Source: an uncultured Planctomycetota bacterium (GTDB lineage: Bacteria; Planctomycetota; UBA11346). Taken from it: 64,000 nt of DNA. The stretch's first letter is position 1, and each line of letters begins with the position of its first letter. A program made the translations under genes and the position numbers. The stretch lies in the NCBI GenBank assembly GCA_963818245.1, contig CAWFSD010000043.1, positions 20,716 to 84,715 on the forward strand, given 5' to 3'. Below the pieces are notes generated by a model that was not told where the DNA came from, made no database searches, and worked only from the letters and a program-made list of their open reading frames with translations. Of the stretch, positions 1 through 59,318 are shown one piece after another.

Positions 1-504
1 CTGCGCACCGGCGACGGTCAGCGGCGGCACCACCGGGAGTTGCAGCAGCAGGCGCTGGCGCAGGGCCTCGTCCAGGGCCAGCGGCCGCACCAGCACCTGC
101 TCGACCGGCACCGGCCAGCGCGCTGCGATGATCCAGCGGCGGGCGCCGCCGGACAGCGCGGTCCCGGCGCGCCGCTCGGCCTCGTCGGCGAGCCACGCCG
201 GCACCCACCAGCCAGCGGGTGCGCCCGGCTGCACCACGCCGGCGGCCAGGCCCTGCCCGAGCATCGCGCCGAGCAGGTCGCCGGCCCCGCCGCAGCCGCA
301 CACCGCAGCGAGCGCGCGCGCCGGGGCGGTCGGCAGGGCCAGGCCCCAGGGCAGGCTGAGGATCTCGCGCGCCGAGCGCGCCAGCGCGCCGGCCAGGCGG
401 GCGGGCGCGCGCGCGACGATGCCGGCGAGCTCCTCGGCGAGTTCGGCCTCGCGCACGGTGCCGGCCAGGCGCTCGAGTCCGGCGATCAGGGCGATGGCGT
501 CCAT
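1..504 (-). CDS. hypothetical protein (N-terminal part; 3' end lies outside the window), last visible gene of the minus-strand operon
   Basis: ATG at 504 gives MDAIALIAGLERLAGTVREAELAEELAG..., with G/C-rich third positions, open to position 1. The start overlaps the upstream gene stop (486-488) by 19 nt. It is absent from the ORF track because no stop lies in the window. Confidence 0.45.
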   Translation of the reverse strand, partial: MDAIALIAGLERLAGTVREAELAEELAGIVARAPARLAGALARSAREILSLPWGLALPTAPARALAAVCGCGGAGDLLGAMLGQGLAAGVVQPGAPAGWWVPAWLADEAERRAGTALSGGARRWIIAARWPVPVEQVLVRPLALDEALRQRLLLQLPVVPPLTVAGAQ

Positions 505-1238
505 GCCGGATCCTCCGCCCTCACGGCGCCACCGCGCGCCTCGACCCAGGCGCGCGCCGCGCGCTCGACGTGGTCCGCATCGTCCAGCCACGGCGGGACG
601 GGCAGGCCGGCCAGGCGCAGCCGCGCGGCCTCGTGCAGGAACTGCCAGCGCCAGTGCGCAGCGAGGTGCGGGGCGCGCTGCGCCGCGGGTAGGAGCTGGC
701 TGGCGGGCGGCTCGCCGAGCGCGGCCAGGAACGCCGCGCAGCTGGCGGCCGCCGGACGGGAGCCGGCCATCGTCACCCACGGATGGAGCGGCGGCGGCGC
801 GGCGAGCGCGCCCGGATCGGTCGGCGCCTGCCAGCCCGGCAGGGCGGTGAGCGGCTCCAGGTGCGGCACGGCTGCGAGCCACGGCAGCTCGCCGCCGGCG
901 ATGAGCACGCAGGCGCTGCCGCTGCGCGCGCCCGGGAGCGGGCAGGCGAACAGCGCGGTGCCTGCCAACCGCTGCAGGGTGAAGGACTCGCCCAGGCGGC
1001 GGGCCAGCGCATCGAGCGGGTAGCGTCCACCGGCGACGATGTGACCCGGCCAGGTCAGCGCCGCGACCGCCAGGCAGCCATCGAGGGCGACCACCACGCG
1101 CGCCCCGCCGCCGGCCAGGGCCAGTCCCCACCACGTCCGCCCCGGCACCCACCACAGCCGCTCCGGGGCGTGCAGGATGAGCTGCCGCACGTCGTGGACG
1201 GCGGCGGCGAGGTCGGTGGCGGTCACCGTCTCAGACAT
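486..1238 (-). CDS. hypothetical soluble protein (about 250 aa)
   Basis: This is the C-terminal 250 aa of track ORF 486..1400. The likely start is ATG 1238 (MSETVTATDLAAAVHDV...), which overlaps the upstream stop as ATGTCTGA (1231-1238). No motif was recognised. Confidence 0.5.
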   Translation of the reverse strand: MSETVTATDLAAAVHDVRQLILHAPERLWWVPGRTWWGLALAGGGARVVVALDGCLAVAALTWPGHIVAGGRYPLDALARRLGESFTLQRLAGTALFACPLPGARSGSACVLIAGGELPWLAAVPHLEPLTALPGWQAPTDPGALAAPPPLHPWVTMAGSRPAAASCAAFLAALGEPPASQLLPAAQRAPHLAAHWRWQFLHEAARLRLAGLPVPPWLDDADHVERAARAWVEARGGAVRAEDPAWTPSP

Positions 1239-1968
1239 CGACGAAGTGCGCGCGCGCGCGGCTGAGCGCGAGCAGCGCCACGAGGAGGCAGAGCAGCAGG
1301 CTCGGCACGGTCGGCAGCGGCACGGGCAGGGCCATCGCGAAGGGCACGGCCGCCAGCGCCAGGCGGCAGGTGTGCAGCCACGCCTGGAAGCGCAGGCCAT
1401 TGGGCGACCGGCCCTGCTCCTGCGCCAGGCGCGCCGCGTATTCGCCCAGGAAGAAGGCCAGGAAGGCCGCCGGCACGGCGAGCAGCACCAATTGCAGGGC
1501 GTACCAGCCGCGGGTCAGGAACATGGTGCCCCAGGCGCGTTGCACCGGGTAGAAGGTGCGCTCGACCCAGGCGGTGAGGCGCCGGCCGAGCGTGCGCGTC
1601 ACGCGATCGCCGGCTGCGGGGCTCGCAGGGGCGGTGGCGGAGTCGCCCGCGCCCGGCTCCGGGACCAGGCGCTGCACGGTGGCGTGCGCGGCTTCGTAGG
1701 GCCACGCGGCGGTGAGCAGTTCGCGCCCGTCCCAGGCGAGGCGCGGGGTGGCCAACGCGGCCTGGCGCTGCTCCCACTGCTGGAGGCCTTCCAAATAGGT
1801 GATGAAGCGCGCGGTGCCGTTCTCGGCGAGCGCCGCGAGCGTGGGGATGACGATCGAGACCAGCACCCACATCGCCAGCGGTGCGCCGAGCACGAAGATG
1901 CCGAGGTCGAGGACCCGGCTGATCACCAGCGCGGCGAGCGGGCGGCGGGCGGGTTCCGGGTCAGCCAT
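1231..1968 (-). CDS. multi-pass inner-membrane protein, unknown function
   Basis: Track ORF 1231..2031, with probable start ATG 1968 (MADPEPARRPLAALVISRVLDLGIFVLGAPLAMWVLVSIV...). It has hydrophobic helices at both ends and a soluble middle part. Confidence 0.55.
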   Translation of the reverse strand: MADPEPARRPLAALVISRVLDLGIFVLGAPLAMWVLVSIVIPTLAALAENGTARFITYLEGLQQWEQRQAALATPRLAWDGRELLTAAWPYEAAHATVQRLVPEPGAGDSATAPASPAAGDRVTRTLGRRLTAWVERTFYPVQRAWGTMFLTRGWYALQLVLLAVPAAFLAFFLGEYAARLAQEQGRSPNGLRFQAWLHTCRLALAAVPFAMALPVPLPTVPSLLLCLLVALLALSRARAHFVDV

Positions 1969-2078
1969 GGTGGTGGCGCTCCGATGCGCGGTGGGGGCCC
2001 GGCGGCGTGGTTGCGGAGCAGGCCAGCGCACCGTCGAGCGCGGTGCCTGGGTGTGGCCGCGGTTCCTTCACCGTCTGT

Positions 2079-3081
2079 TCAGAACACATAGGCCAGCGAA
2101 CCGCCGGCCACCAGGCGGTCGTGGCTGTCGAGGCCGCGGCCGCCGGACAGCTCGCGGCCGGCCCAGCCGGTGAGGTGGAGGCCGGCCAGCGGAGTGAACT
2201 CGGCGACGCCCAGCAGCGGCGCCTGGTTCAGGGCCATGCCCGTGAAGCCGGGTTGCGGTTCCCCGCCGCGCGTCCGCCAGTCGTCGTGCGTCATGCCCTG
2301 CTCGGCGCCGATGCGCACCCAGGTCCAGGGCCGGAAGGACAGGCCGATGGCCCCGCCCACGCCGATGTGGCGGTTCTCGAAGGATTCCCGCGTGCCACCC
2401 GCGCCCGCGACCGCGATGGTGTTGGAACCGGAGAAGGTGTACTGCGCATCGCCGCGCACCTGCAGCGTGCACATGCCGAGGCCGAACGACCCGCGCACGC
2501 CGACCAGCGGGGTGAATGACCAGTCGCTGACGCGGCCGTGGCAGATCAGCCAGTCCTCGCGGTCGCCGAGCGGCGTGAGCGCGCCGAGCGCGAGCGCCAC
2601 CGCCTGGTAGCGCGTGCGGTAGAGGGTGAAGACCAGGTCGGTCTCGAGGTCGCCCCAGTGCACGGCGTCGGTGCGGTCGTCGCGGCTGCCGCGCACGGCG
2701 ATCTCGCTGCTGCACCAGGGCGCGCCCAGGTTCTGCCGCCAGCGCAGCTCGGCGTCGGTGCGCCGCTCGACCAGCGGCGCGGTGGGCGCGCCCGGCTGGG
2801 GCGGCAGCGCCTGCCCCCGGCGCGGCCCACTGCGCCTGGGGCGTGCCGGTGCCCCACGCCACCGCATGGCCGGTCACGGCCAGGCGCAGCAGCGACCAGC
2901 CATCCGGCATGGGCATGGCCGGAGCGGTCTGCGCACCATCGCGGCGCAGGTCGCCGAAGATGGTGGGGATGACGTTGGCCTGCTCCCGCACCGCGGTCTG
3001 GTTCCAGGGTCCGACCTCGGCCCGGACGCTGGGCGGCAGGGCGGTGCAGGAGAGCAGGATCAGGATGGGCGTGCTGCGCAT
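2079..3081 (-). CDS. outer-membrane beta-barrel protein; one frame change at the C5 run 2814-2818
   Basis: A signal peptide (MRSTPILILLSCTALPPSVRA) starts at ATG 3081, in the frame of ORF 2068..3642. After the homopolymer at ~2816 the gene continues in ORF 2079..2867. That part has alternating beta-strand-like segments and a terminal ...GGSLAYVF aromatic residue typical of OM barrels. Confidence 0.6.
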
Positions 3082-3088
3082 GGCGGGG

Positions 3089-3835
3089 TCAGTTCGTCCG
3101 CTCGGCGGAGGCGGGGGCGGCAAGCGCCGTGGTCGCAGCAGCGGGAACCGGCGCTGCGGGCGCGGTGGTGGCCGATGGCATCGGTCTGCCGAAGCCGGGG
3201 GAGGTGCCGACGTACAGGCCGAGGAAGCGGCGCAGGAGCCCGCGCCGGGGCACCGGGGCCAGGCGGCTGCGCCAGTAGCGTTCGCGCCAGCCGAGCAGCA
3301 GGAGCACCGCCAGCACCGCGACGATGGCCAGGTGCGACGCCCATTCCGGGCGGGCGGCCCCGGCCGGCGCGGTGAGGCGGTCGAGTTCCGCGGAGAGGCC
3401 GAGGTCGGCCGCGGTCGCTTCGTGCCAGATCCCGGCGTGGTGGCTGCGCGCCTCGCCCAGCGCCTGCACGTACTGCTGGCGGCGCACGTGGGCCGCCAGC
3501 AGCGTCTCGTCCGGGAGGGCCCAGCCCTCGGCGACGGCGAGCTCGCTGAAGGTGCGGTCGGCGGCGACGAAGACCTCGATGACCGGGAGTTCGGCGAAGG
3601 CGCCCAGACCGGTCGCGGTCGCCTGGGCCTGCACCACGCCACCGACCGGCATCCAGGTCGCCGCGGCGCGATCGATCAGCACCTGGTAATCGGGGATGGG
3701 GACGATGGCGCCATAGGCCACCGGGGCCTCGAGGCGGTGGCCGCCGCTGACCACCGCGATGGTGCCATAGGCGGCGCCGAAGACGGTCTGGAGCTGCACC
3801 GGGGTGGGATGGTCGACGGACAGGGGCAGGGGCAC
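3089..3835 (-). CDS. membrane-anchored protein with a thermonuclease (SNase)-like C-terminal motif; catalytic residues not recognisable
   Basis: GTG 3835 is preceded by GAGG with 6-nt spacing, 8 nt after the upstream stop. The segment ...LAVAEGWALPDETLLAAHVRRQQYVQALGEARSHHAGIWHE resembles the SNase C-terminal helix and GxW motif. No DGDT or RLxGIDxPE motif is visible. One TM helix (HLAIVAVLAVLLLLGW) is followed by a Pro/Ala tail. Confidence 0.4.
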   Translation of the reverse strand: MPLPLSVDHPTPVQLQTVFGAAYGTIAVVSGGHRLEAPVAYGAIVPIPDYQVLIDRAAATWMPVGGVVQAQATATGLGAFAELPVIEVFVAADRTFSELAVAEGWALPDETLLAAHVRRQQYVQALGEARSHHAGIWHEATAADLGLSAELDRLTAPAGAARPEWASHLAIVAVLAVLLLLGWRERYWRSRLAPVPRRGLLRRFLGLYVGTSPGFGRPMPSATTAPAAPVPAAATTALAAPASAERTN

Positions 3836-3843
3836 CGGGGGCC

Positions 3844-4377
3844 TCACTTCACCGCGGGCGGCGCCGCTGCGGGTGCTGCGGGTGCCAGGGGCGCTGCGGG
3901 ACCAGGAAGCGCCGGGCCGGGCCGGGCGGGATGCGCTTCGAGCAGCGTCGGATCGATGGGGGCGGGCGCCGCCTGCGCGGCACCGGCGGGCGCGCCGGCC
4001 TTGTCGTCCTTGCCCTCGTGCGGTGCCAGGCCGAGCGCCTGGAGCTGCTTCATCACCGCGAAGCCGGTGATGCGCTGCGCCTCGGCGACGCTGTCGAGGT
4101 GGCGTTCGATGCGCTCCACGCGCTGCGCGACGAAGCCGCCGAGCAGCACGACGCTGAGCAGGAGCAGGTTGAGCACCTGGCCCGAGCCGGCCAGGTTCCA
4201 GGTGGCGACGATGCCCTCGCGGAAGGCCGCCGCCATGCCCGCGAGGAGCCGCGCGAGCGTGCCGCCTGGCCTGCCCAGGCCGGCGGTCAGCGCGCTGCGC
4301 TCCGGTCCCTCCGCAGGGGAGGACGCGGGTACCGCGGCGGCGCGGGCCGTGGCGGGAGCGAGCACCGGATGCTTCAT
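3844..4377 (-). CDS. single-pass membrane protein, unknown function
   Basis: Track ORF of 177 aa. It has a TM segment (VLNLLLLSVVLLGGFVAQ), a short helical region and a Pro/Ala-rich tail. It sits in the operon frame context. Confidence 0.45.
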   Translation of the reverse strand: MKHPVLAPATARAAAVPASSPAEGPERSALTAGLGRPGGTLARLLAGMAAAFREGIVATWNLAGSGQVLNLLLLSVVLLGGFVAQRVERIERHLDSVAEAQRITGFAVMKQLQALGLAPHEGKDDKAGAPAGAAQAAPAPIDPTLLEAHPARPGPALPGPAAPLAPAAPAAAPPAVK

Positions 4378-4557
4378 GATCGTGACCAGCAGGGAAGGGC
4401 CGCGCGCGCAGGCGGGCCGGGCGGGACAGGGCGCCCGTGCGCAACGGCGTGACCGTCGGACGCAGGGGCCCAGGGAGGACGCAGCCGTGCGGAACTGCGC
4501 CAGCCGGGTACGCGGATGGCGGCACGGGTGCGTCGTGCAGCGTACCGCAGGCCCCGC

Positions 4558-5643
4558 TCAGTCCACCTTGGCAGCCGGCTGCCAGACCAGCGTCGGCAGC
4601 GGCTGCTGCTGCAGGAGCGCGGCGTTGTCCGCCGCCCAGCGCGCCGTGAGCATGGCCAGGGTCTGGCGCAGACCGGCGAGGCGCGCGCGCGACTGGTCGC
4701 GCGCGGCGCGGGTGATCGGCGGCTCGTCCGGCTGTGCCGCGCCGAAGGCGAGCGCGGACAGCGGCGAGGCGGCGAGTCCGTCGAGCGCGCGCGCCACCAG
4801 GCGCACCGCCGTGACCACCTGGCCCGGCTCACGCTGGCGCACGGTCCGGGCGAGCAGCTGCGCGACCGTGCGCACCTGGTCGAGCTGCTCCTCCATCGCG
4901 GCGCCGTGCGCGGGATGGCGGCGCAGCGCGGCGAAGGCGCCGTCGACACCGAGGTCGCCGGCCTGCGCGGCGAGGTCGAGGGCGAGCGGTTCGAGTCCAG
5001 CCCACTGCGCCTCGGCGAGGCGCTGGTGGATGGCCTTCCCGTCGTGCGCGCCGCCGCTACCGCCCAGGCCGTCCTCCTGGCGCGCCGCGCCGGCCAGCGC
5101 ATCGATGCGCGCTGCCAGGGTGGCGAGGCGGTCGGTCAGCCCGCTCCAGTCCGCGGGGCTGAGCACCAGGCTGGCGCGGCGCCGCCCGGCGTCGGTGGAC
5201 GCCCCGGCGTGATCCGGGGCCGCGGCCGCGGCCGCGCCGGCCTGGTCGGCGCCACCCTGCGGGCCCGCCGCGGCGAAGACGCCGTCGAGCAGCACGCGGA
5301 TCGCGGCGATGCTCGCCGCGAGTCCGCGCAGGTCGTCGAGGTGCGCGTCCGGCACCCCGGGCCGCGGGGCCTGCCAGGCCGGCAGCACGTAGCCGTGGTC
5401 CTGCCAGAAGCGCTGCTGGTCGACCTCGACCAGCACGGCGCCATCGCTGGTGTCGGGCGTGACCGGCAGGCCTTCGAGCGGCGGCAGTTCCTGCAGGGTG
5501 GTCCCCGGCGCCGGGGGCGGGGCGCGCACCGGCACGACCAGGCCGACCACGGCCACGCGGTCGTAGCGCTGCGCGCAGCCGGCCAGCGCGAGCAGGCCGG
5601 CGCCGGCGAGGGCGGTGAGGCGCCTACTTGCCGCCATTGCCAT
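4558..5643 (-). CDS. lipoprotein, unknown function
   Basis: Track ORF of 361 aa. It carries a signal peptide with the lipobox LLALAGC. Its start overlaps the upstream gene end (5624) by 20 nt. Confidence 0.6.
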   Translation of the reverse strand: MAMAASRRLTALAGAGLLALAGCAQRYDRVAVVGLVVPVRAPPPAPGTTLQELPPLEGLPVTPDTSDGAVLVEVDQQRFWQDHGYVLPAWQAPRPGVPDAHLDDLRGLAASIAAIRVLLDGVFAAAGPQGGADQAGAAAAAAPDHAGASTDAGRRRASLVLSPADWSGLTDRLATLAARIDALAGAARQEDGLGGSGGAHDGKAIHQRLAEAQWAGLEPLALDLAAQAGDLGVDGAFAALRRHPAHGAAMEEQLDQVRTVAQLLARTVRQREPGQVVTAVRLVARALDGLAASPLSALAFGAAQPDEPPITRAARDQSRARLAGLRQTLAMLTARWAADNAALLQQQPLPTLVWQPAAKVD

Positions 5644-6709
5644 CCCCAGCGGCCGGCGCGGCGGACTGGGCGGGCGCGGGCGCGGCTGGCGCTGCGCTTC
5701 CGCCCGCCGCCACCGCGTTGTCCTCGCGCGCGCGCACCGCCGCCATCTGGTCTTCCGCGGTGCGGCGGATGCGTTCGGCCTTGGCCTCGTAGAGGCGGCG
5801 CGCGTCGTCGATCGCCACCGCCGACCCGGTGCGCGCCTTGGCGACCTCGGCGTCGCGATCGCGGTGCAGCTCGGCGAGGCGCTTGCGGTTGCCGTCGCTC
5901 AGCTCCTGGCGCTGCCGCTCGTGCAGCTCCTCCTGCTTGAGCAGGTAGGTCTGGTCCATGTTCTTGGAGTGCGCGATGTCGACCTCGAGCTTCTGGCTGA
6001 CCGCGAGCTTCTCGCCGGCGGCCCGGTAGGCGGCCAGGACGTCGGCCTCGACCTTCGCCCAGCGCTGGTTGAGCTCGTCGACCTGGCGGCCGAAGCGGGC
6101 GCTGATCGCCTCGATCTCGGCGCCGCCCTCCTTATAGGTCGCCGCGACCTGGTCGTCGCGCGCGGCGGTGATGCGGCCGATCTCCTGGTCGCGGGCGCGG
6201 TGCAGGCGGGCGGCCTCCTCGAGCAGGCGCTGCTGCTGGAGTTCCTGGCCGCTGCGCCGGGTGGCGTCCTCCTCCTGCAGGCGCGCGCTGGCGTGCGCGG
6301 CCTCGCTGGAGCGGCCCTCGAGGTACTGCTTGAGCTCGCTGGCGGCGGCGGCGATGTCCTTGATGGCGACGTCGAGGCGCTCGGCGCGCGCGATCTCGCG
6401 CTGCGCCTCCTCGGCGCTCAGCGCGGTGCCGGTGTAGGTGCGCCAGGCGTGCGGCTGCACCACGTAGAGCTGCTTGCCGCCGGTCAGGACGATGGCGCCG
6501 TTCTCGTAGCGCGCCTTGGGCACGTTGGCCAGGACGATGACGTCGGTGTCGGGGCCGAGGTTGTCGGAGGCGAGGAACACGTCGTGCTCCTGCTGCGGGG
6601 TGAGGGGCAGGTCGTCGCTGGCGTGGCGGTCCGCGCCGCAGCCGCCGAGCACGGCGAGCGCGGCGAGGCCGGCGAACGGCCAGGCGGTGGAGGCGGTGGG
6701 ACTGGTCAT
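5624..6709 (-). CDS. coiled-coil lipoprotein
   Basis: ATG 6709 forms an ATGA overlap with the upstream stop (6706-6708). The protein begins MTSPTASTAWPFAGLAALAVLGGC (lipobox LGGC). A small beta domain is followed by ~250 aa of charged, helical, heptad-like sequence (EEAQREIARAERL..., QRQELSDGNRKRLAELHRDRDAEVAKAR). Confidence 0.65.
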   Translation of the reverse strand: MTSPTASTAWPFAGLAALAVLGGCGADRHASDDLPLTPQQEHDVFLASDNLGPDTDVIVLANVPKARYENGAIVLTGGKQLYVVQPHAWRTYTGTALSAEEAQREIARAERLDVAIKDIAAAASELKQYLEGRSSEAAHASARLQEEDATRRSGQELQQQRLLEEAARLHRARDQEIGRITAARDDQVAATYKEGGAEIEAISARFGRQVDELNQRWAKVEADVLAAYRAAGEKLAVSQKLEVDIAHSKNMDQTYLLKQEELHERQRQELSDGNRKRLAELHRDRDAEVAKARTGSAVAIDDARRLYEAKAERIRRTAEDQMAAVRAREDNAVAAGGSAAPAAPAPAQSAAPAAGDGNGGK

Positions 6710-8098
6710 GCGCGGGCTCCCGTGAGCAGGCGGTCGCCGCTGGCGACCTCGTCGGAGGTGAACCACGCGCCGAGCGGCGCGGGGTGCGGAGACTGGCTGG
6801 TGGTCCACCAGCCGCGCGCCTGGGCGCGGTCGAGGTCGGCCGCGGGGCGCAGCCGCGCGGGCAGGCGGTCCACGCTGCGCGCGTCGACCAGGCGGTTGCC
6901 GCAGAGCTCGCCGATGGCGCCGGCGGGCGGCTCCTGATCGCCGAGCAGCAGCACCACCGAGAGGTGGTGCTTGCGCCCGCCGCGCAGCAGGCGCTCGAGG
7001 GCGGCGCGCGGCGCGGGCGCGGCCAGCGCCGCCTCGCCATCGACCATCAGCACCTTGCGCCGGCCGACCGCGGCGGGCAGCGCGGCGCGCTCGAGCAGGG
7101 CGTCGAGCAGCACCGCCAGGCGCAGCGGGTGGCGCCCGGGGTCGCCGACCAGCCAGCGGCCGCCGTCCCACCAGGCGGGCAGCCGGGTGCGCCCGCCGAG
7201 GATGCCGCGCAGCAGGCCCGCGAGCGGGCGCGCCGCGGGCTCCTCATCGAGGGCGTGCAGCACGTTCTCGGAACCGAGCGGCAGCGGGGTGGCCTGGGCC
7301 TCGAGCGCGCGGCTCCACGCGATCTCCCAAATGCGCGCGTCGACCGCGTGCGCGGCGAGCGCGCGCAACGCGTCGTCGGGCGCGGCGCGGTATTCCGCCT
7401 GCCGGCGCAGCCGCACGAGAGCGAGGTCGCGCTCGGCGGCGAGCGCCCCCGGCGAGAGGTCGGGGACGAGTTCGGCCGCGTACGGGCGCCAGTCCTCGGC
7501 GTCGCGCGCGGCGACCAGCAGGGCGAAGCCGTCAGGGGCGAGCTCGCCGCGCTCGAGCGCCGAGCCTGGCGGCGCGCGCGTCCTCGCGCGTCCACGGGCC
7601 GCGGCGTGCCTGCGGTGGCGGCAGACCGCTGGCGGCGGCGTGGCCGACCATGTCGTCGATCAGCGCCGCCGCGCGCGCCGCCGCGGTGCCGGGCGGGAAG
7701 CGCATGGCGAGCAGCGCCAGGCCGGCGACCGGCTGGGGGACGGCGCCGGCGGCGGCGTGGGCGAGGCGCTCGAGGCAGGCCGCGACCGCGGGCGGCACCG
7801 CCGGGCCGCACTCGGCAGCGGCGAGGTCGAGGAGCATGCCGCGCAGGCTGGCCAACCCGTCGTTGCCTGCGGCCAGGCCGGCGAGCAGGTCGAGCTCGCG
7901 CCCGTCGACGGTGCGCGCGCTGGCGATGTCCGCGGCCTCGCGGCGGCTGATCGCGACCAGGCCGGCGCCGTCCTCCTGCGCGAGCCGGTGCGCGAACACG
8001 CGCGCGACGTCGCCGCGCCACTCGCCGAGCACCAGCAGGTGCGGGTTGGGCAGGGCGCCGAGCCCGGGCAGCGCGGTGAGCAGGTCCGCCGTCGCCAT
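6706..8098 (-). CDS. VirD4/TraD (FtsK-superfamily)-like protein lacking a P-loop; one frame change near 7560
   Basis: ORF 7532..8098 (MATADLLTALPGLGALPNPHLLVLGEWRGDV...) joins ORF 6706..7416 at ...AARLG/ALERGELAPDGF... The tail RKVLMVDGEAALA...LLRGGRKHHLSVVLLLGDQ resembles the Walker-B and sensor region of coupling proteins. GEWRGD occupies the place of GxxGxGKT, and no GxxxxGK[ST] occurs anywhere in the protein. Confidence 0.45.
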
Positions 8099-8862
8099 CA
8101 GCGCCTCTTCTCGCCGGCGGAGAAACCGTTCGGCCAGCGCTCCGAGCAGTCCTGCAGGGCGCGGTCGAGCGCCTCGTCGGCGGGGTAGCCGCGCGCGCGG
8201 AACTCGTTGCGCAGCAGGTCGCGTTGGCGCACGTCCTCGGGGGCGGTGGTGAAGATCCAGTAGGCGTAGGGCGTGGGCACGAAGCGCGCCACTTCGCAGA
8301 TGCCCTGGTTGGGGATGTCGAAGATCGCCTCCGAGAACATGCCCTTGGCCGAGACCACCGTGTACATCAGCGCCTTCTGCTCGTCCGACCAGTCGAGGTG
8401 CTTGTCGAGCTCGGCGATGACGTCGGGCGGCTGGCGCAGCAGGATGCGGTGCTGCGAGGCGCTGAGCACGACCTTGCCGCGCTCGGTGGTGGCGAAGTCG
8501 CGCACCAGCTGCGAGATGCAGACGATCGCGGTGTTGTGCTTGCGCAGGGTGCGCAGGCCGTTGATGACCAGGTCGGCGACCATCGGCACGGCGAGCAGCG
8601 CCCAGAACTCGTCCAGCACGATGTACTTCTGGTAGGCGCGTGGGCCGCCGCCCGCGAGGTGCTCGCTCTGGCAGTAGAGCACTAGCATCTGCAGCAGGGT
8701 GCCGACCACCGCGGCGACCAGGTGCTCGCCGGCCGAGGAGAGCTCCTGCAGCTCGAAGGTGCAGAGCTTGCGGCCCTCGAGCCGGAACTGGGTCTCGCCG
8801 TCGAAGAAGCCGGCGAGCGGACCGTTGACGCAGTGCGTGCTTGCGAGCGGCGGCCTCGTCAT
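8098..8862 (-). CDS. VirB4/TraC-type conjugative ATPase, C-terminal half only (no Walker A)
   Basis: Track ORF of 254 aa with ...KLCTFELQEL..., YQKYIVLDEFWALL (Walker B), LRTLRKHNTAIVCISQLVRDF and ...YWIFTTAPEDVRQRDLL. Order and spacing match the C-terminal third of TraC/VirB4. Only 61 nt separate it from the upstream stop, so the ~500 aa N-terminal region with the P-loop is absent. Confidence 0.7.
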   Translation of the reverse strand: MTRPPLASTHCVNGPLAGFFDGETQFRLEGRKLCTFELQELSSAGEHLVAAVVGTLLQMLVLYCQSEHLAGGGPRAYQKYIVLDEFWALLAVPMVADLVINGLRTLRKHNTAIVCISQLVRDFATTERGKVVLSASQHRILLRQPPDVIAELDKHLDWSDEQKALMYTVVSAKGMFSEAIFDIPNQGICEVARFVPTPYAYWIFTTAPEDVRQRDLLRNEFRARGYPADEALDRALQDCSERWPNGFSAGEKRR

Positions 8863-8923
8863 CCTCGTTCGCGCGGCACGAGCGCGTTTTTCACGACCAC
8901 CAGGGGGGGCGCTCGGCGCCGGG

Positions 8924-10507
8924 CTATTCCGCGGGGACCAGGCTCATCGCCGCCAGCCGGATGATGGACGACATGGTCAACCCCTGGAATTCGCGCACCG
9001 GCTTCGCCTGTCCCGGCACCATCAACCAGATCGCCGGATCGCCGGTCGCACCCAGCGCGTCCTTCAGCTTCACCGCATCGGTCATCAGGGTGGTGATGGT
9101 GGTCTGGTGCTGACGCACGGTGGCGATCGCCAATGACGTCGGGAAGTCTGCCGGCAGGTACGCCATCGCGTCGGCGGTGACGACGATGTCGCGCTGATGC
9201 TGCATGAAGGCGCCCAGGCATTCGACCAGCGGGCGCTCGCCGATCACGCCCGCGGCATAGGCCAGCGAGGCGGTGGCCTGGGAGGCTTGGTTGCGGTAGG
9301 TGATCAGGAAGCGCACCTGCAGGCGTCCGGCCTTGACCAGGTCGGCCAGCTCGAGCACCTGGGCGAGCTGCTGCGCGCACACCGGGCACCCCATGTCGAG
9401 GGCGAAGACCATGGTCACCGGCGCCGTGGTCCGGCCCCAGTGGTTGGCGAGCGCGACCGGCCGGCCCGCTGGCGCGGTTACGGAGGCCTGCGGGGCGGAT
9501 GCCTGCTCAGCGCTGGTCGGGCCGGCATGCGGCGCGTGCGACCGCACGGGCGTGGACCGCGGTGGCTCCTCATCGACCGGCGCGGCGACCGCGCTGCGCG
9601 CGACGGCCGCCGGAGCCGCCGGAACCGGCCACGCCTCGGTGGCGCGGTCGGCCGGCTCTCCGCCTGCACCCGCGCCGGCGCGCGCACCGCGCGCCGGCGC
9701 CTCGGCGCGGTGCGGCACGTCGGCCACGGGCGTGGACCACCGGGCGGCCGCCTCGTGGCCGGCCCCCTGCGCCGCGCGCACCTCTTCGCTGATCTGGTCG
9801 AGGCGCTGCGGCGGCTGCTCTTCGCTCCACAGGCCGCGCAGGTAGGCGAGCAGCTCCGCGGGGTCGTTGCGCAGCGGTGGCAGGTCGCGGTGGTGGTAGA
9901 GCGCGTTCGCGCCGCCGGCGGCGGCCAGCACCGTGGCGAGCACCGCGATGCGGGCGCTGCCGCGCGTCGCCAGCGCGAGGTCGGCGAGCTGCACGGCCAT
10001 CAGCGCGTGGATGGCGAAGCAGGAACCGCACCACGTCCCGGACGCCGCCATGACCATCGCGAAGAACAGCGATCCGCCGCAGGCCAGCGCGATGGCCAGG
10101 TCGGTGACCAGCGTGGCCTGTGGCCGGTAGCGGCCCTGCACCAGGGCGATCAGCGCCACCGCGCCGTGCAGGACGATGGCGGCGACCGCGGTGGGCAGGC
10201 CGAGGAAGTCGGCATAGGCGGCATAGCTGCCGCAGCGGCTCGCGCACAGCCCGAAGACCGCCACGGCGGCGAGCAGCACGGCGACCGCGTGCGGCCACGC
10301 GCGCCGGGACTCCCAGGCCGGCGCGCCGACCAGGGCATAGGCCATGGCGGCGACCGCCACCAGCGTCGCCACCACGCCGGTGGCCGGCGCCGCGGACAGC
10401 ACCACCGTCGCGACCAGGCTGAGCCCGCCGAGCCAGAAGCAGGCGAGCCTGAGCGCGTGGCGCGGCGCCAGGCCGGACTCCTGGTGCGGACGGCGCGGCG
10501 TGACCAC
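8924..10507 (-). CDS. VKOR (vitamin K epoxide reductase family) fused to a thioredoxin/DsbA-like domain
   Basis: The N-terminal region has 4-5 TM helices, the loop Cys pair CASRCGSYAAYADFLGLP, and a membrane CXXC (TWCGSCFAIH). A Pro/Ala-rich linker of ~150 aa follows. The C-terminal thioredoxin fold carries LDMGCPVCAQQ. The alternative start ATG 10541 (an ATGA overlap with the upstream gene) would need one indel. Confidence 0.75.
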   Translation of the reverse strand: MVTPRRPHQESGLAPRHALRLACFWLGGLSLVATVVLSAAPATGVVATLVAVAAMAYALVGAPAWESRRAWPHAVAVLLAAVAVFGLCASRCGSYAAYADFLGLPTAVAAIVLHGAVALIALVQGRYRPQATLVTDLAIALACGGSLFFAMVMAASGTWCGSCFAIHALMAVQLADLALATRGSARIAVLATVLAAAGGANALYHHRDLPPLRNDPAELLAYLRGLWSEEQPPQRLDQISEEVRAAQGAGHEAAARWSTPVADVPHRAEAPARGARAGAGAGGEPADRATEAWPVPAAPAAVARSAVAAPVDEEPPRSTPVRSHAPHAGPTSAEQASAPQASVTAPAGRPVALANHWGRTTAPVTMVFALDMGCPVCAQQLAQVLELADLVKAGRLQVRFLITYRNQASQATASLAYAAGVIGERPLVECLGAFMQHQRDIVVTADAMAYLPADFPTSLAIATVRQHQTTITTLMTDAVKLKDALGATGDPAIWLMVPGQAKPVREFQGLTMSSIIRLAAMSLVPAE

Positions 10508-10537
10508 CCTGCAGGGTGGCGACCTCGATCGGCGGGC

Positions 10538-11676
10538 TCATGGCTGCGCTCCTTCCGCGGCCGCAGCGACCGCACCGACCGCGCTGAGCGGCGGCACGAT
10601 CGCCGCGGCTGCCGGTGCGGGCGGCGGCGCGCGCTGGGGCGCGGTTTCCGGCGGCGCGCCCCCGCGGCGGGAGCGGCGACCTCGTCCATCTCGGCGTAGG
10701 GGATGTCGTGATCGACCAGCGCGAGGTCGGCGAGCGGCAGGCCGACCAGCTTGGCGACCACGTCCGCCGGCTGGAAGCCGTCGAGCCTGATGCCCTTGCG
10801 CGCGTGCGGATCGGGACCGCCGGCGGTGATGATGGTCAGCGGACTGGCGCCCAGGCGCAGCAGATCGGCGCGCGCGGCGTGGGCGAGCACGCAGCGCACC
10901 CCCGGCAGGCGCGCCATGTCGGGCTCCTCGCCGTCGGGCACGATCAGGGTGAAGCGCGGGTTGAGGCGCCCGAAGGCGCGCTCGATCTCATTGACCTGCG
11001 CGCGGAAGACGCGGCCGGCCGCGTCGGCGGTGTAGATGTGGAACACCCCGGGGTCGGCCCACGGATCGACGGTCTCGCCGCTGACGTGGTTGCGCGCCTT
11101 CAGCAGCGCCTCGTCGGCGGCGAACTCGCGGCCGGAGAAGCCGCTCTTCACCCGCCGCAGGGCGCGCAGCACGACCTGGTCCTTGCCCAGGGCGCGGCAG
11201 TACTCGGCGATCGACATGGCCTTGTAGTGGGCGCCGGCGACGTAGCCGAAATACAGCGTGAACAGCTCCGGATCGTTGCCGTGCATGGCCTGGGGGATGG
11301 AGAGCTGCGGGATCGGCATGCCATCGGCGTCGAGGAACAACAGCGTGCCGGCGCTGGCGCCGAAGAAGTTCTGCAGGCGTTCGCCGCCGACCAGGCGGTC
11401 CGTCATCGGGTTGCGCACCTGGTCGCCCGAGCGCAGCACCACCACTGGGATGTCGAGCGTGGCGATCGCCCCGGCCGCGAGCAGCCGCGGCAGGCGGTTG
11501 TCGGGACTGCCGAGATAGACCGCATAGGGTCCCGGGACGCCGGCGCGCAGACGTTCGAGGATGTCGTTCCAACCCGGCAGCGCGGTGGGCGGCGCCTGTG
11601 CGGCGGCCACGGCGGAAGCCCCGCCAAGGAGCAGGAGTGCGGTCAGGACCGCGATGCACGTGCCGGGGAGACGCAT
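10538..11676 (-). CDS. secreted periplasmic protein, two thioredoxin-fold-like halves without CXXC; 3' end reconstructed across a frame change near 10655
   Basis: The signal peptide is MRLPGTCIAVLTALLLLGGASAVAAAQA. The protein-like sequence runs to ...DIPYAEMDEVAAPAAG. After that the track frame becomes an Arg-rich run overlapping the next gene. The -1 frame instead gives APPETAPQRAPPPAPAAAAIVPPLSAVGAVAAAAEGAQP and a stop at 10538-10540. Confidence 0.5.
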
Positions 11677-11903: not shown

Positions 11904-12284
11904 GTGGAACTCTACGTTGGTAATCTTCCCTGGTCCGTCACCGATGAGAGCCTCAGCGCCCTCTTCGCCAAGCACGGCGCCGTTTCGCGCGCCAAGGTCG
12001 TCATGGACCGCGAGAGCGGCCGCAGCCGCGGCTTCGGCTTCGTGACCATGACCAATGACGCCGAAGGCACCGCGGCCATCCAGGCCATCAACGGCACCCA
12101 GGTCGACGGCCGCGCAGTCAACGTGCGCCAGGCCGAAGAGCGCTCGGGCGGCGCTGGCGGCGGTCGCTCCGGCGGCGGCGGCGGTGGTGGTTACGGCGGC
12201 GGCTCGGGCGGCGGCGGTGGTTACGGCGGCGGCTCGGGCGGCGGCGGCGGCGGCGGATACGGCGGCGGTCGTCGCGATCGCTGA
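11904..12284 (+). CDS. RRM-type RNA-binding protein with a Gly-rich tail
   Basis: GTG start. The motifs LYVGNLPWSVTDESL (RNP2) and RGFGFVTM (RNP1) are followed by a GGYGGGSGGGGGYGGG...RRDR tail. Confidence 0.9.
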   Translation: MELYVGNLPWSVTDESLSALFAKHGAVSRAKVVMDRESGRSRGFGFVTMTNDAEGTAAIQAINGTQVDGRAVNVRQAEERSGGAGGGRSGGGGGGGYGGGSGGGGGYGGGSGGGGGGGYGGGRRDR

Positions 12285-12330
12285 ACGCAGCTCCCCGTCC
12301 GCGGCGACGCGGACGGACCGATGCTGAATG

Positions 12331-12365
12331 AACGCTGGCGGGGGCACACCCCGCCAGCGTTTTTT
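12331..12365 (+). terminator. rho-independent terminator of the RNA-binding protein gene (copy 1)
   Basis: An 11-13 bp perfect stem (aacgctggcgggg / ccccgccagcgtt) has a 5-nt loop and is followed by T6. Confidence 0.8.
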
Positions 12366-12424
12366 CATGCCCCGTGCACCGCCGCGCCATGCGCGCGGCG
12401 ACGCGGACGGGCCGATGCTGAATG

Positions 12425-12459
12425 AACGCTGGCGGGGGCACACCCCGGCAGCGTTTTTT
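12425..12459 (+). terminator. second, duplicated terminator (copy 2, one stem mismatch)
   Basis: The hairpin is the same as copy 1 except ccccgGcagcg, and it is followed by T6. Confidence 0.65.
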
Positions 12460-12521
12460 CATGCCCCGTGCACCGCCGCGCCATGCGCGTGCCCATCCGG
12501 GCGCTCATGGCGCAGGCCCGG

Positions 12522-29476: not shown

Positions 29477-29797
29477 AGCAGATGCCTGGATTGCCTTGGC
29501 ACGAACGGCATGATGATAGATTCCAGGAATGGTTCAGACGCATCCCATGGAGCGCACGCCACTGAGCGGACGGGGCTGGTGCAACGACGGTTGCATGGTG
29601 CGTCGTGGCGGCGCACACACTGGTACATGGCGTGGAAACCATCACTCTACATTCTCGATCGGCCCCACCAGGATCTGTTGTATAGTCGTCAGCACGAACG
29701 GCGGATAGCCGGCGGTCTCAGCCGCACCGCGGATGCCACACCGCCACGCCTGATCCGCCCCGACGATCCTGCCGTCCCTGTAGCCGTGGAGTTCCCG

Positions 29798-32650
29798 ATG
29801 CACCCTCCAGCCCGCCGCTCCGACCTGCGCACGCCACGCCGCTTCCGCTCCACCGCGCTGCTGCTCGGCGCGGTCGCCGCCTGCCTCGCGCAGCCGCTCA
29901 GCGCCGCGGACCCGGTCGGGCAGATCATCGGCAAGGCCGCGGCCGCCGGCCGCCTGCCCTACATGCTGTACCTGCCGAACAGCTACAACACCGATGCGCA
30001 GGCGACCTTCCCGCTGGTGGTCTGCCTGGGCGGCGTCAGCGAGGTCGGCAACGGCTCGTACGATGGGACGCTCAACGAGTCCGGGACCAACCAGCTCGCC
30101 TACGTGCTGCACCACGGTCCGCTGCAGCTGATCCGCAGCGGCGTCACCTTCTTCAGCGACAACCCCACCATCGTCATCCATCCCGAGAACCCCAACAACA
30201 ACTACAGCGCCGCCACCATCGACGCGACCATCACCCAGGTCGCCACCGCCTACCGCGTCGACCCCAGCCGCATCTACGTCACCGGCTACAGCCTGGGCGG
30301 CGGCGGGGCCTGGCTCTACGGCCAGGCCCACGCCGCGCGCCTCGCCGCCCTGGTGCCGATCGCCGGCGCGTCCTACCCCGCGAATCCCAACAGCTTCGCC
30401 AGCATGTCATCCCTGCCCGTGTGGGCCGTGCACAATGCGCTGGACGGCACCGTGCCGGCCGCGTGGACCACCGGCACCACCACCGCCTTCACCCCCAACC
30501 TGGTCGGCTGGGTCAGCGGCATCGCGGCCGGCCAGGGCGGCATCAACCCGCGCTGCCTCGACAACTACCCCGGCGCCATCGGCTTCACCACGGCTGGCGC
30601 GCCGCTCTCGCCCAAGACCATCACCGGCGTGAACGCGACGCGCAGCGGCCACTATCACCCCTCCTTGGGCTGGGGCTGGAACGACGGCACCGTGTTCGTC
30701 GGCGGCGACTACACCCAGGTCACCATCATCAACGCTGCCGACCACAACGGCTGGGACGCCACCTACGGCACCGGCAGCGGCAGCGCCTTCAACACGGCGT
30801 TCTGGACCTGGCTGCTCGCGCAGCGGCAGGGCCTCGCGCCCGTCGCCCTGGGCAACACCGAGGTCGTCGTCGACGACACCTTCAACAGCAACGGTTCGAC
30901 GACCAGCGCCTCGGGCACCTGGTCCTCCGGCAGCTCGGCGGCCGCGTTCGACGGCACCTACGCCTTCTCCCACTTCGGCACGTCGTTCACCTTCCACCCC
31001 AACCTGCCGGCGACCGACACCTACCAGGCCTACATCTGGTACAGCGGCGCCAGCGGCGTGGCCCTCAGCACGGTGGTGCCGGTGACCGTCTTCGCCAGCG
31101 GCGTGACCACCAACCTCACCATCGACGAGGCCTTCGGAGCCGGTCACTGGGTGCCGATCGGCATCTATCAGTGCGCCTCGGGCACCGGTACCGCGGTGAC
31201 GATCGGGACCGCCGGCGCGAACGGCGCGGTCTCGGCCGACGCGGTGCGTTTCGTGCGGCTGCCCGGCGCCAGCGTCAACACCCCGCCCACCGTCTCGCTG
31301 ATCGGCAACCAGACCCTGACCGCCAGCGCCACGGTCACGCCCGCGTTCACCATCGGCGACGCGCAGACCGCGGCCGCCAACCTGAGCGTGCAGGCCACCG
31401 CCGTCGACACCACGCTGCTGCCGCCCGGCGGCCTGGTGCTGGGCGGCAGCGGCGCCAGCCGCACGCTCGCCATCACCCCCGCCACCGGCCTGACCGGCAG
31501 CACCAGCGTGGTGCTCACCGTCACTGACGACAGCGGCCTCGCCACCAGCACCAGCTTCACGGTGACGGTCACCGCGACGCCGGGCGACACTCCGCCGACC
31601 ATCAGCGGCACCATTCCCGACCAGAACCTCGCGATCGGCGGCAGCTCTGCGGCCCTGGCCTTCACCGTCGGCGATGCCGAGACCGCGGCGAGCGCGCTGG
31701 TCGTGACGAGGTCCTCGAGCAACCCGGGCTACCTGCCGGTCTCCGGGCTGGTGCTGGGCGGCAGCGGTGCGTCCCGCACCGTCACCGTCACGCCGGCCCC
31801 CGGCCAGAGCGGCAGCGCCACGGTCACGCTCACGGTCATCGACGGCGGCGGCCTGGCGGCGAGCAAGAGCTTCAGTGTGACGACCGCGGCGCCCGCCAAC
31901 ACCCCGCCGACCATCACCAACATCATCGACCAGGTCCTGCCGGTCGGCGGCCATTCCTCCGGGCGCGCCTTCACCATCGGCGATGCGGAGACCGCGGTCA
32001 CCAGCCTGGTCGTCACCGCCACGTCCTCCAACCCGACCTACCTGCCCAACTCCGGTCTGGTGCTGGCCGGCACCGGCGCGAGCCGGAGCGTGACCATCTC
32101 AACGGCGGCCGGGCAGAGCGGCTCCGCCACGGTCACCCTCACCGTCACCGATGGCGGGGGCCTGAGCGCGATCACGGACTTCCTGGTCTCCTCGACCGGG
32201 CTGGTGGGACCGACCATCAGCACCATTCCCAACCAGAGCCTGGCCAGCGGCAGCGCCTCGCCGTCCATCCCCTTCACGGTCACCGATCCCGCGGTGACGA
32301 CCATCACCATGCAGGCCGGCATCGCCCCGAGCGGTGCCCTGGACTGCGCCTTCTCGGGGGCGGCCGGCTCGCGCAGCCTGGTCATCACCCCCGCGGCGGG
32401 CGTCAGCGGCGCCTACCAGGTGACCGTCACCGCGCAGGACGCCAATGGCCTGTCCGCGTCCCGCACCTTCACCGCGACGGTGACGTCCGGCGGGCCAGGG
32501 TCGGGGGGTGGATCGGGCTCGAGCAGCGGCGGTGGGGGTGGGGGCAGCGGAGGCGGCTGCGGCCTGGGATCAGGAGCCTATGCCTTGACTGGACTGTTCA
32601 TGCTCGCCCTGCGCAGCCTGGTGGTGGCCGCCTGGCGGCGCCGCGATTGA
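29798..32650 (+). CDS. secreted alpha/beta-hydrolase + golvesin-C-like carbohydrate-binding domain + 4 Ig-like repeats + Gly/Cys C-terminal sorting signal
   Basis: ATG 29798. The esterase module has elbow GYSLGGGG. GTWSSGSS...YQAYIWYSG...ADAVRFVRL matches the golvesin C-terminal-like domain. Four ~100-aa repeats follow (NTPPT(V/I)S...GDA(Q/E)TA...LTVTD(D/G)GGL). The tail is GGGGSGGGCGLGSGAYALTGLFMLALRSLVVAAWRRRD. The gene is intact over 2.85 kb. Confidence 0.8.
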   Translation: MHPPARRSDLRTPRRFRSTALLLGAVAACLAQPLSAADPVGQIIGKAAAAGRLPYMLYLPNSYNTDAQATFPLVVCLGGVSEVGNGSYDGTLNESGTNQLAYVLHHGPLQLIRSGVTFFSDNPTIVIHPENPNNNYSAATIDATITQVATAYRVDPSRIYVTGYSLGGGGAWLYGQAHAARLAALVPIAGASYPANPNSFASMSSLPVWAVHNALDGTVPAAWTTGTTTAFTPNLVGWVSGIAAGQGGINPRCLDNYPGAIGFTTAGAPLSPKTITGVNATRSGHYHPSLGWGWNDGTVFVGGDYTQVTIINAADHNGWDATYGTGSGSAFNTAFWTWLLAQRQGLAPVALGNTEVVVDDTFNSNGSTTSASGTWSSGSSAAAFDGTYAFSHFGTSFTFHPNLPATDTYQAYIWYSGASGVALSTVVPVTVFASGVTTNLTIDEAFGAGHWVPIGIYQCASGTGTAVTIGTAGANGAVSADAVRFVRLPGASVNTPPTVSLIGNQTLTASATVTPAFTIGDAQTAAANLSVQATAVDTTLLPPGGLVLGGSGASRTLAITPATGLTGSTSVVLTVTDDSGLATSTSFTVTVTATPGDTPPTISGTIPDQNLAIGGSSAALAFTVGDAETAASALVVTRSSSNPGYLPVSGLVLGGSGASRTVTVTPAPGQSGSATVTLTVIDGGGLAASKSFSVTTAAPANTPPTITNIIDQVLPVGGHSSGRAFTIGDAETAVTSLVVTATSSNPTYLPNSGLVLAGTGASRSVTISTAAGQSGSATVTLTVTDGGGLSAITDFLVSSTGLVGPTISTIPNQSLASGSASPSIPFTVTDPAVTTITMQAGIAPSGALDCAFSGAAGSRSLVITPAAGVSGAYQVTVTAQDANGLSASRTFTATVTSGGPGSGGGSGSSSGGGGGGSGGGCGLGSGAYALTGLFMLALRSLVVAAWRRRD

Positions 32651-39200: not shown

Positions 39201-39239
39201 GAGGTGTGGAACTGGATGTTCAGCAAGACCCACCCCTGA
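33250..39239 (+). pseudogene. giant (~1990 aa) secreted multidomain protein: hydrolase-like module, MBG x3, SGNH/SASA (GQSNM) esterase, MBG x4, second hydrolase-like module with inserted lectin-like domain; frame interrupted near 35475 and 38868
   Basis: GAGG plus 5 nt precedes ATG 33250, which gives MNPVRTALLTLLLLACGALGLATATA. ORF 33082..36087 joins ORF 35552..39304 at ...WYRVEVRSV / GAILGSAASSLPWGVGINILCIGQSNMVG. That ORF joins ORF 38943..39239 at ...TVTGGGSDI / WNNADHFNYDYQAVSGDATISAQV. The MBG repeats read (L)xAxYDGxAHxVTVTTxPANLATxxTYDG...AGSYAVVATVTDxNYTGS. Confidence 0.75.
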
Positions 39240-39266
39240 GCCGCGCGGACGCGGGCTGCACGCGGG

Positions 39267-39302
39267 ATCCCGCCCTGGCTAGCCAGGGCGGGATTCTTCG
39301 TT
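39267..39302 (+). terminator. rho-independent terminator after the giant gene
   Basis: A 12-bp perfect stem (atcccgccctgg / ccagggcgggat) has the loop ctag and is followed by tcttcgtt. Confidence 0.6.
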
Positions 39303-39323
39303 AAGCCTGCTCCACGTGATCCC

Positions 39324-57180: not shown

Positions 57181-57234
57181 CGTCTGACACCTTCATGATC
57201 GGACGGGCGGGAGCGGACTTGAGCCCGCCCGCGC

Positions 57235-59250: not shown

Positions 59251-59318
59251 GGGAGCTCCTTACGGCCCTGCCTCCGCGATCCGGGGGCTGGCGATGCAAC
59301 GCAAGCGGCGCGCCAGTC

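Follow-up and report, generated by a model that had tools for sequence, protein, structure and literature searches.

We analysed a 64,000-nucleotide (nt) window from an uncultured Planctomycetota bacterium (GTDB lineage UBA11346; GenBank assembly GCA_963818245.1, contig CAWFSD010000043.1, positions 20,716 to 84,715), in which positions 1 to 11676 carry twelve genes, g1 to g12, numbered from 11676 downwards. Of these, g3 to g12 likely come from the distal end of a very divergent, F-like type IV secretion system (T4SS) cluster of Planctomycetota. Its front half, with most of the motor ATPase, would have been lost, an unrelated two-gene unit now standing in its place, and the copy in the window is probably a recently truncated, dead remnant. 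A first-pass annotation, made from the sequence alone, had described these genes as a single translationally coupled envelope operon built around VirB4/TraC-like and VirD4/TraD-like proteins without a P-loop, and had offered two readings, a decayed fragment of a conjugative element and a T4SS-derived module reused for another purpose. The T4SS ancestry was correctly recognised, and the reading that the annotation did not favour, decay, is supported by a sharp breakpoint at position 8830 relative to intact relatives.

The locus was compared with contigs from several assemblies. L001 is a Logan contig (read set ERR11523670) that matches window positions 8890-7421 and may share its sample with the window; L004, also a Logan contig, matches window positions 7227-4522 (2.7 kb) at 100% identity. 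L005 is a JGI contig with 97.4% identity to window positions 8830-5589, and L006 (GenBank JBBQSO010000057.1, an Illumina assembly titled “MAG: Planctomycetota bacterium”, that is, a metagenome-assembled genome) is 88% identical to positions 8830-4473. L009, from another sample, is 95.4% identical to positions 3488-1. Relatives of g4 are carried by L007 (62% guanine-cytosine [GC] content; protein P0008) and L008 (46% GC; protein P0009). L002 and L003 belong to the ENA metagenome assembly ERZ26871208, which may or may not be the source of the window. The related contigs span 12-26 kb, and all end inside or just outside the cluster.

The following two features carry the main finding.
g3, positions 8098-8862, minus strand: 5'-truncated traC (VirB4), corresponding to residues ~854/860-1101 of the 1101-amino-acid (aa) TraC of L006.
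Rearrangement breakpoint, positions 8830-8848, no strand: blastn similarity to L005 and L006 ends at 8830, and weak tblastn protein similarity reaches ~8847.

As had been noticed at the outset, g3 matches only the C-terminal part of VirB4/TraC: the F-type TraC model TIGR02746 is matched only at model positions 581-797 of 800 (E-value 2e-30; 105 bits, against a cutoff of 567 bits). The N-terminal TraC_F_IV domain (PF11130), which is present in the orthologues of L005, L007 and L008, is missing from g3, a regular-expression search of g3 for Walker A (GxxGxGK[ST] or GxxxxGK[ST]) found no occurrence, and the Walker B motif IVLDEFW and the C-terminal RK...Q block LRKHNTAIVCISQ are retained. The blastn similarity of L005 and of L006 to the window stops at the same base, 8830, with none upstream. 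In L006, traC (7442-10747) is a single open reading frame (ORF) encoding 1101 aa; GESGSGKS occupies residues 499-506, and residue 860 marks the breakpoint. In L005, traC lies at 6315-9619 and is split by a frameshift near 8480. From residue 13 onward, g3 differs from the L005 TraC by at most one residue, and its first ~10 codons, ATG included, derive from the other side of the junction. Because the TraC of intact relatives has its Walker A upstream of the breakpoint, the missing P-loop of g3 is, judged by these alignments, a truncation and not a design feature; the gene is a broken one and not part of a redesigned machine. The earlier remark that neither ATPase-like protein contains GxxxxGK[ST] was confirmed for g3 and for g4 after correction of its frame.

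Upstream of the breakpoint, L005 and L006 continue with the rest of traC, a lipoprotein of ~240-275 aa and a ~1175-aa protein with a TrbI/VirB10 domain (E-value 6e-15), and further upstream with a protein that TraK_C matches weakly and one that is VirB8/TraE-like. Three relatives found through the g4 family (P0006, P0008 on L007 and P0009 on L008; g4 26-42% identical to that of the window, gene sizes similar) have the order of two TraE-like genes, a ~260-aa gene, a TrbI-domain protein of 1162-1186 aa, a ~240-aa protein, a TraC of 1096-1125 aa, and then g4, g5, g6, (g7), g8, g9, g10 and g11. Homology of g3-g6 and g8-g11 across the relatives was confirmed by tblastn, with a weak match for g7. 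The core order is collinear across L005-L008, with TraE and TrbI scoring above and TraK_C below the Pfam cutoffs. The TraC of the cluster reaches ~1100 aa through a ~230-aa insertion between the Walker A and Walker B regions, which sits between TIGR02746 model positions ~549 and ~563 and part of which resembles the middle of g4.

Core TraE, TraK, TraB, TraV and a full TraC were not found in the window by Pfam and NCBIfam scans, and the reported absence of relaxase, integrase, pilin and VirB6/8/9/10 from the 12 kb held up, with no Pfam or NCBIfam match there. The reading as a repurposed system was not supported by this comparison, which gave the outcome that the annotation had named as its refutation: L005 (97%) and L006 (88%) carry a ~1100-aa TraC with Walker A together with VirB8/9/10-like genes, and the window has a truncated copy. 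In L007, the genes for TraC and g4 have one boundary base in common, and overlapping or abutting neighbours are frequent; the preserved operon geometry, which had been taken as a sign of a maintained unit, is inherited from the intact cluster and kept in distant relatives.

The genes of the window that lie downstream of traC in this cluster are as follows.
g4, positions 6706-8098, minus strand: 463-aa cytoplasmic protein with a predicted degenerate HerA/FtsK-type P-loop domain without Walker A; frame broken by an extra G at 7561.
g5, positions 5624-6709, minus strand: lipoprotein with an LGGC lipobox and a long coiled coil; retained in the adjoining downstream position in every related cluster, with orthologues in L002, L005-L008 and L011.
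g6, positions 4558-5643, minus strand: lipoprotein with an LAGC lipobox, function unknown; orthologues in L006, L007 and L008.
g7, positions 3844-4377, minus strand: small single-pass membrane protein; weak match at the same position in L007.
g8, positions 3089-3835, minus strand: staphylococcal nuclease (SNase)-like domain with a C-terminal membrane anchor.
g9, positions 2079-3081, minus strand: secreted protein with a signal peptide, a putative outer-membrane barrel ending AYVF; 333 aa in L009.
g10, positions 1231-2031, minus strand: polytopic membrane protein; start at GTG 2031 or at ATG 1968 (as called in L009).
g11, positions 486-1238, minus strand: 250-aa soluble protein, 40% identical to a relative of 46% GC.
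g12, positions 1-504, minus strand: first 168 codons of a protein that is 323 aa long in L009; continues off the window.

Upstream of the breakpoint, the window holds the following features.
g1, positions 10538-11676, minus strand: secreted protein with a signal peptide, function unknown, outside the T4SS cluster; 3' end uncertain; called from the ORF and its translation.
g2, positions 8924-10507, minus strand: VKOR-like membrane domain (CGSC) fused to a DsbA/thioredoxin-like domain (CPVC); start at GTG 10507.
g2-g3 spacer, positions 8863-8923, no strand: 61 nt, holding a plus-strand terminator-like hairpin.

Neither g1 nor g2 has a counterpart in L002 or L005-L008, and by this comparison the pair is not part of the T4SS cluster but a flank joined to it by deletion. 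The 61-nt spacer with its opposing terminator-like hairpin separates g2 from g3, and the two are not coupled. The hairpin with its T5 run (8866-8891) is in plus-strand orientation, against the surrounding genes, and is unusual in DNA of 75% GC; it may be left over from a convergent gene that has since disappeared, or may serve g2 as a bidirectional terminator, and the spacer fits a former boundary between separate units. The claim of a single twelve-gene coupled operon was therefore not upheld, given the absence of g1 and g2 from every related cluster examined, the uncoupled 61-nt spacer and a 180-nt gap between g6 and g7; what was called an operon is a flank of two genes and, next to it, distal genes of a T4SS cluster, which continues past the window edge. 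An ICE-type integration-site search (integrative and conjugative element, ICE) returned no meaningful repeats at the g2-g3 junction and no tRNA gene within the window.

The translation of g2 carries both CXXC motifs, CGSC and CPVC. Thioredoxin_4 is matched at the cutoff (23.3 bits against 23.2, E-value 8e-5) and VKOR below it (19.2 bits against 27.5, E-value 1.4e-3). In its polytopic N-terminal CGSC domain and C-terminal thioredoxin-like CPVC domain g2 resembles the bacterial VKOR-thioredoxin fusions (DsbB/DsbA analogues), from which it differs in the VKOR score below the Pfam cutoff and in an Ala/Pro-rich linker of ~130 aa between the domains; it is plausibly a disulfide-forming enzyme of this fused type. 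For g1, no Pfam or NCBIfam match was obtained. Its ORF as written extends to 10150, and TGA 10538-10540 is reached only after a frame change; a one-base deletion in the G5 run near 10660 would end g1 at this stop.

We propose that the intact cluster encoded, in order, two TraE/VirB8-like proteins, a TraK/VirB9-like protein, a TraB/VirB10-like protein of ~1170 aa, a lipoprotein of ~240 aa in the TraV position, a TraC/VirB4 of ~1100 aa, the g4 pseudo-ATPase and at least nine lineage-specific envelope proteins, with overlapping starts and stops between genes. The copy in the window would then derive from a deletion or rearrangement, broken at 8830-8848, in which all sequence upstream of TraC residue ~855 was lost, and with it Walker A and the complete VirB8/9/10 scaffold. 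What was left of traC would have ended up beside two unrelated chromosomal genes, one for a secreted protein (g1) and one for a VKOR-DsbA-like disulfide oxidoreductase (g2). With an active VirB4 and the core channel both gone, a T4SS would not be expected to assemble; the genes left behind most likely form a young relic that has not yet been eroded, and any transcription of them would be read-through from the g1-g2 promoter.

Codon changes on the window branch were counted with L006 as outgroup. The synonymous/non-synonymous counts were 7/1 for g3, 7/6 for g4 and 8/3 for g5, and the totals for g3-g5 were 22/10 on the window branch against 20/5 on the L005 branch (Fisher’s exact test, p = 0.38), with a total divergence of only 2.6% since the split from L005. 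These counts give no sign of relaxed selection on the window branch, and a recent deletion would be the simplest reading.

Several genes of the window are interrupted by single-base frameshifts. As written, g4 consists of two frames, 8098-7532 and 7416-6706, because of an extra G at 7561, and is thus not the open 464-aa frame that had been reported; L001 is identical to window positions 8890-7421 apart from this G, whose absence restores a g4 of 463 aa, and the same G is missing in L005. In g9 the frame changes near 2805-2870, with an extra G at 2805; L009 lacks this G and encodes one 333-aa protein, and g9 is a single ORF in L007, L008 and L009. One-base insertions also break unrelated genes of the window, an esterase/lipase-like gene at ~14270 (…AENDP / LGCENG…HVYPDGGHGFGL) and an ABC-transporter permease gene at ~15690 (…SFYRSVQT / VPREQLEAATVFGFGWWQRL), giving an indel rate of ~1 per 3-4 kb in the first 16 kb. 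Because these unrelated genes are also frameshifted, and because independent assemblies lack the extra G’s, the g4 and g9 frameshifts are probably assembly errors and not decay, and both genes were treated as intact; the frame change in g1 is probably likewise a single-base assembly error. True pseudogenisation was rejected as the cause, as housekeeping genes are equally hit and a same-population contig lacks the extra base. Together the indels indicate a general indel-error problem in the assembly of the window. Two related contigs of ERZ26871208 have names ending in np1212, which we read as nanopore-polished, although this assembly is not known to be the source of the window.

It is unlikely that the ATPase-less distal genes remain under selection behind the disulfide machinery of g1-g2, as an envelope-spanning device that does something other than type IV secretion. 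Such a device would agree with the lack of excess non-synonymous change on the window branch, with distal frames that are all intact once single-base errors are discounted, with the ATG of g3 and its location on the same strand as g1-g2, and with the retention of a g5-like gene by other truncated TraC copies, such as that of L011. However, the junction is unique to the lineage of the window among all loci found, all relatives with the same distal genes have a full-length TraC and a VirB8/9/10-like scaffold, the spacer is uncoupled and holds the opposing hairpin, the 2.6% divergence from the intact L005 is too small to show decay, and the TraC copies of L003 and L011 look like the haphazard fusions that decay predicts. 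Distinctly unlikely, in our view, is a Planctomycetota T4SS class outside the typing schemes, in which TraC is coupled to its dead paralogue g4 and to ~10 lineage-specific envelope proteins, and whose distal half is kept here as a working module. By its sequence matches, the cluster is best filed as a Planctomycetota-specific, very divergent F-like T4SS, a variant of the known F-like kind.

That the join at ~8830-8890 is a chimera, in which the assembler stitched a T4SS contig to unrelated chromosome while the cluster of the organism is intact, is highly unlikely. The window has evident assembly errors, with one-base insertions in at least four genes, and L001 stops only 60 nt past the breakpoint; however, these 60 nt on the g2 side are joined to g3 in an independent k-mer assembly of ERR11523670 at 100% identity and unbranched at 8830, and no contig with an intact version at ~100% identity was returned (best 97%), so that L001 argues against an assembler chimera at this junction. 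There is only a slight chance that an inversion or large insertion cut traC and that the proximal half survives elsewhere, with the system disrupted and not deleted: a distant second half is compatible with a 64-kb view, and several T4SS fragments (L002, L003) coexist in ERZ26871208, possibly not the source of the window, but the other 52 kb of the window contain no proximal T4SS gene or any other T4SS gene and are ordinary chromosome (RNA recognition motif [RRM] protein, esterase, ABC transporter, MsrA and flagellar genes), and TraC would remain severed in any case.

Five points weigh against the truncated-remnant reading that we prefer. An inversion, for example, could have carried the missing half to another place in the genome, of which only 64 kb are visible. 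The 7:1 ratio of synonymous to non-synonymous changes in g3 also fits continued selection on the stump. If L001 shares the sample of the window, an assembler artefact would be excluded, but the junction might still belong to a minority variant. As L009 is from another sample, the extra G at 2805 may be a true lesion. Finally, a conjugative role of the parent cluster is assumed; relaxases and coupling proteins were seen neither in the window nor in the related contigs of 12-26 kb.

Fragments related to the cluster were also found in other arrangements. L002 (8028-11468) represents a second subtype with 74-79% nucleotide identity in traC, in which a full-length TraC is followed directly by the g5-like lipoprotein, without g4; the TraV-position lipoprotein of this contig is separated from the VirB10-like gene by ~3.6 kb of genes without assignment. 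In L003 (10001-11125), a pilin-like N-terminus (signal peptide and two helices) is fused to a mid-TraC fragment that adjoins a resolvase and an integrase. In L011 (3725-4723), a Ser/Thr-kinase N-terminus is fused to the last 140 residues of TraC and followed by a g5-like gene, beside a melibiase gene. The recurrent, haphazard breakage of TraC in L003 and L011 looks like that of decaying integrated elements.

The missing P-loop of g4 is real and holds across the whole family. A full HMMER scan of 1.84 billion representative proteins recovered 11 family members, none of which (0/11) contains GxxxxGK[ST]. At the Walker A site, a conserved N-P-H-hydrophobic strand is followed by G, with GEWRGDV at the P-loop position; the Walker B-like K-x-L-x-I-D varies, and an R..RK motif is invariant. 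No match to g4 was found in Pfam (even at E-value ≤ 1), NCBIfam or PADLOC. AlphaFold2 modelling from the single sequence was useless (pLDDT 42); with the 11-member alignment, the model reached pLDDT 85, begins with a beta-strand at residue 21 and has no transmembrane helix. Foldseek against the PDB matched this model to HerA, the FtsK motor, DndH and TdpAB (probability 0.94-1.0, E-values down to 6e-5, TM-scores 0.3-0.4), with no coupling protein among the top 50 structural matches. On the strength of this model, we conclude with moderate confidence that g4 has a catalytically dead HerA/FtsK-type domain.

Sequence-profile comparison with hhalign aligned residues 179-384 of the g4 family with residues 735-963 of the cluster’s TraC (L006 numbering; E-value 6e-4, probability 28%). 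The aligned stretch of TraC takes in Walker B, the RK block and a portion of the lineage-specific insertion. When the comparison was limited to the C-terminal block of TraC, the E-value was 0.07, and matches of the g4 family profile to HerA among PDB sequences were not significant (E-value 0.26-0.8). From these alignments, g4 is probably a paralogue of the TraC ATPase domain. Judged by its conserved place in the relatives, it is a regular member of the intact system, where the P-loop is missing too, and we propose that it may act as a catalytically dead, TraC-derived partner that co-assembles with TraC or regulates it.

VirB4 and VirD4 are members of the HerA/FtsK superfamily by established classification. 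With HerA, the FtsK motor and DndH, g4 shares the core ATPase fold (Foldseek probability ~1), and its motif L-x-R-x-G-R-K aligns with ERIAKEGRKYG of HerA and GLRTLRKH of TraC; it differs from them in TM-scores of only 0.3-0.4 and in having no Walker A, a variable Walker B, no HAS barrel and no transmembrane anchor. With VirD4, TraD and TrwB it has in common the ATPase superfamily and the position inside a T4SS cluster, but it lacks the N-terminal transmembrane helices, Walker A and any coupling-protein Pfam match, even at an E-value of 1. The first-pass assignment of g4 as VirD4/TraD-like was accordingly dropped, the nearest fold being HerA/FtsK and the nearest sequence, weakly, TraC. A coupling protein was rejected as an identity for g4, which has no N-terminal membrane anchor, no Walker A and no TraG-D_C/TrwB-type domain.

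For the distal genes, the lipoboxes of g5 and g6 and the AYVF terminus of g9 are visible in the sequence, as had been described. Pfam and NCBIfam searches of the distal genes in the window and three relatives returned only SNase, for one g8 orthologue: that of L007 matches PF00565 above the cutoff (E-value 9e-5), which supports the SNase-like assignment of g8, and the protein of the window has no direct match. TraW, TraU, TrbC, TraN, TraF, TraH and TraG had no Pfam or NCBIfam match among g4-g13 or their orthologues in the three relatives. Profiles of g5, g6, g9, g11 and g12 gave nothing significant against PDB sequences, two JGI metagenome scans with g11 and g12 gave no matches, and g11 had no exact entry on record. 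In L009 a further gene follows g12, and the cluster thus extends beyond the window edge. An anti-phage system was considered and rejected, as PADLOC returned no hits for g3-g12.

The window has ~75% GC and long spurious ORFs in all six frames, and the coding strand was assessed by the codon-position GC profile. From 1 to ~11700, every 300-nt window shows the GC-richest codon position followed by the GC-poorest in ascending coordinates, as for minus-strand coding, and genes from 15.1 kb show the reverse order, as for the plus strand; the placement of all coding from 11676 to 1 on the minus strand was thereby borne out. Seven gene junctions were exact on re-checking of the sequence: TGATG at 8096-8100 (g3/g4), ATGA at 6706-6709 (g4/g5), a 20-nt overlap at 5624-5643 (g5/g6), an 8-nt gap at 3836-3843 (g7/g8), a 7-nt gap at 3082-3088 (g8/g9), ATGTCTGA at 1231-1238 (g10/g11) and a 19-nt overlap at 486-504 (g11/g12). 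The eighth, ATGA at 10538-10541 with ATG 10541 as the start of g2, was not, as this ATG is out of the g2 frame and g2 begins at GTG 10507.

Further features were observed in the rest of the window. Two tandem 94-nt repeats (12286-12473, 91% identical), each with a strong GC hairpin followed by T6, form a duplicated terminator just 3' of the gene for a glycine-rich RRM RNA-binding protein (11904-12284, plus strand). Two very large plus-strand ORFs with strong coding signal lie at 29477-32650 (1058 aa) and 35420-39304 (1295 aa), the former with a Gly-rich stretch and a membrane anchor at its C-terminal end. Flagellar genes were found at 56719-57192 (fliS-like), 57235-59259 (fliD-like) and 59914-61548 (flagellin); together with the title of the L006 entry they point to a planctomycete that is flagellated and very rich in GC.

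Among known systems, the intact relatives resemble F-type (mating-pair formation type F, MPF-F) clusters in proximal gene order, with matches to TraE, TraK_C, TrbI (VirB10) and TraC_F_IV; TIGR02746 is the best NCBIfam model, and the nearest plasmid TraC proteins are F-type. They differ in that the TraC is only 24-29% identical to any plasmid TraC and has ~1100 aa with the ~230-aa insertion, that the VirB10-like protein has ~1170 aa, and that TraW, TraU, TrbC, TraN, TraF, TraH and TraG are undetectable, with g4-g13, which have no family assignment, in their stead; the copy in the window also lacks the entire proximal half. The window resembles ICE remnants in its partial set of transfer genes, its chromosomal context and its sharp deletion boundary inside an essential gene, and of its sibling fragments, that of L003 adjoins a resolvase and an integrase and that of L011 is fused to a host kinase. 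Unlike such remnants, the window contains no integrase, att site, tRNA or relaxase, and ICE status is one that we only infer.

In a preprint survey that covered 83 complete genomes of Planctomycetota, 38 chromosomes had MPF proteins, no complete MPF system was found, and one plasmid was of the MPF-T type (bioRxiv 10.1101/2024.01.22.576637). Because only part of the proximal half matches known MPF families, clusters like the intact parent of the window would probably escape MPF typing, which perhaps explains the lack of complete systems in that survey.

The lesson of this locus is a corrective one: a “P-loop-less VirB4” in a draft MAG needs to be checked against close relatives and for indel errors first, and these two checks together explain the oddity here. 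The interest lies less in the copy of the window than in the intact Planctomycetota cluster and its dead ATPase partner. A conserved T4SS-like cluster of ~20 genes occurs in Planctomycetota from 46% to 75% GC, of which only the TraE, TraK, TraB and TraC parts are recognisable, and the always-dead HerA-like partner encoded beside TraC is a concrete, testable oddity of this cluster family.

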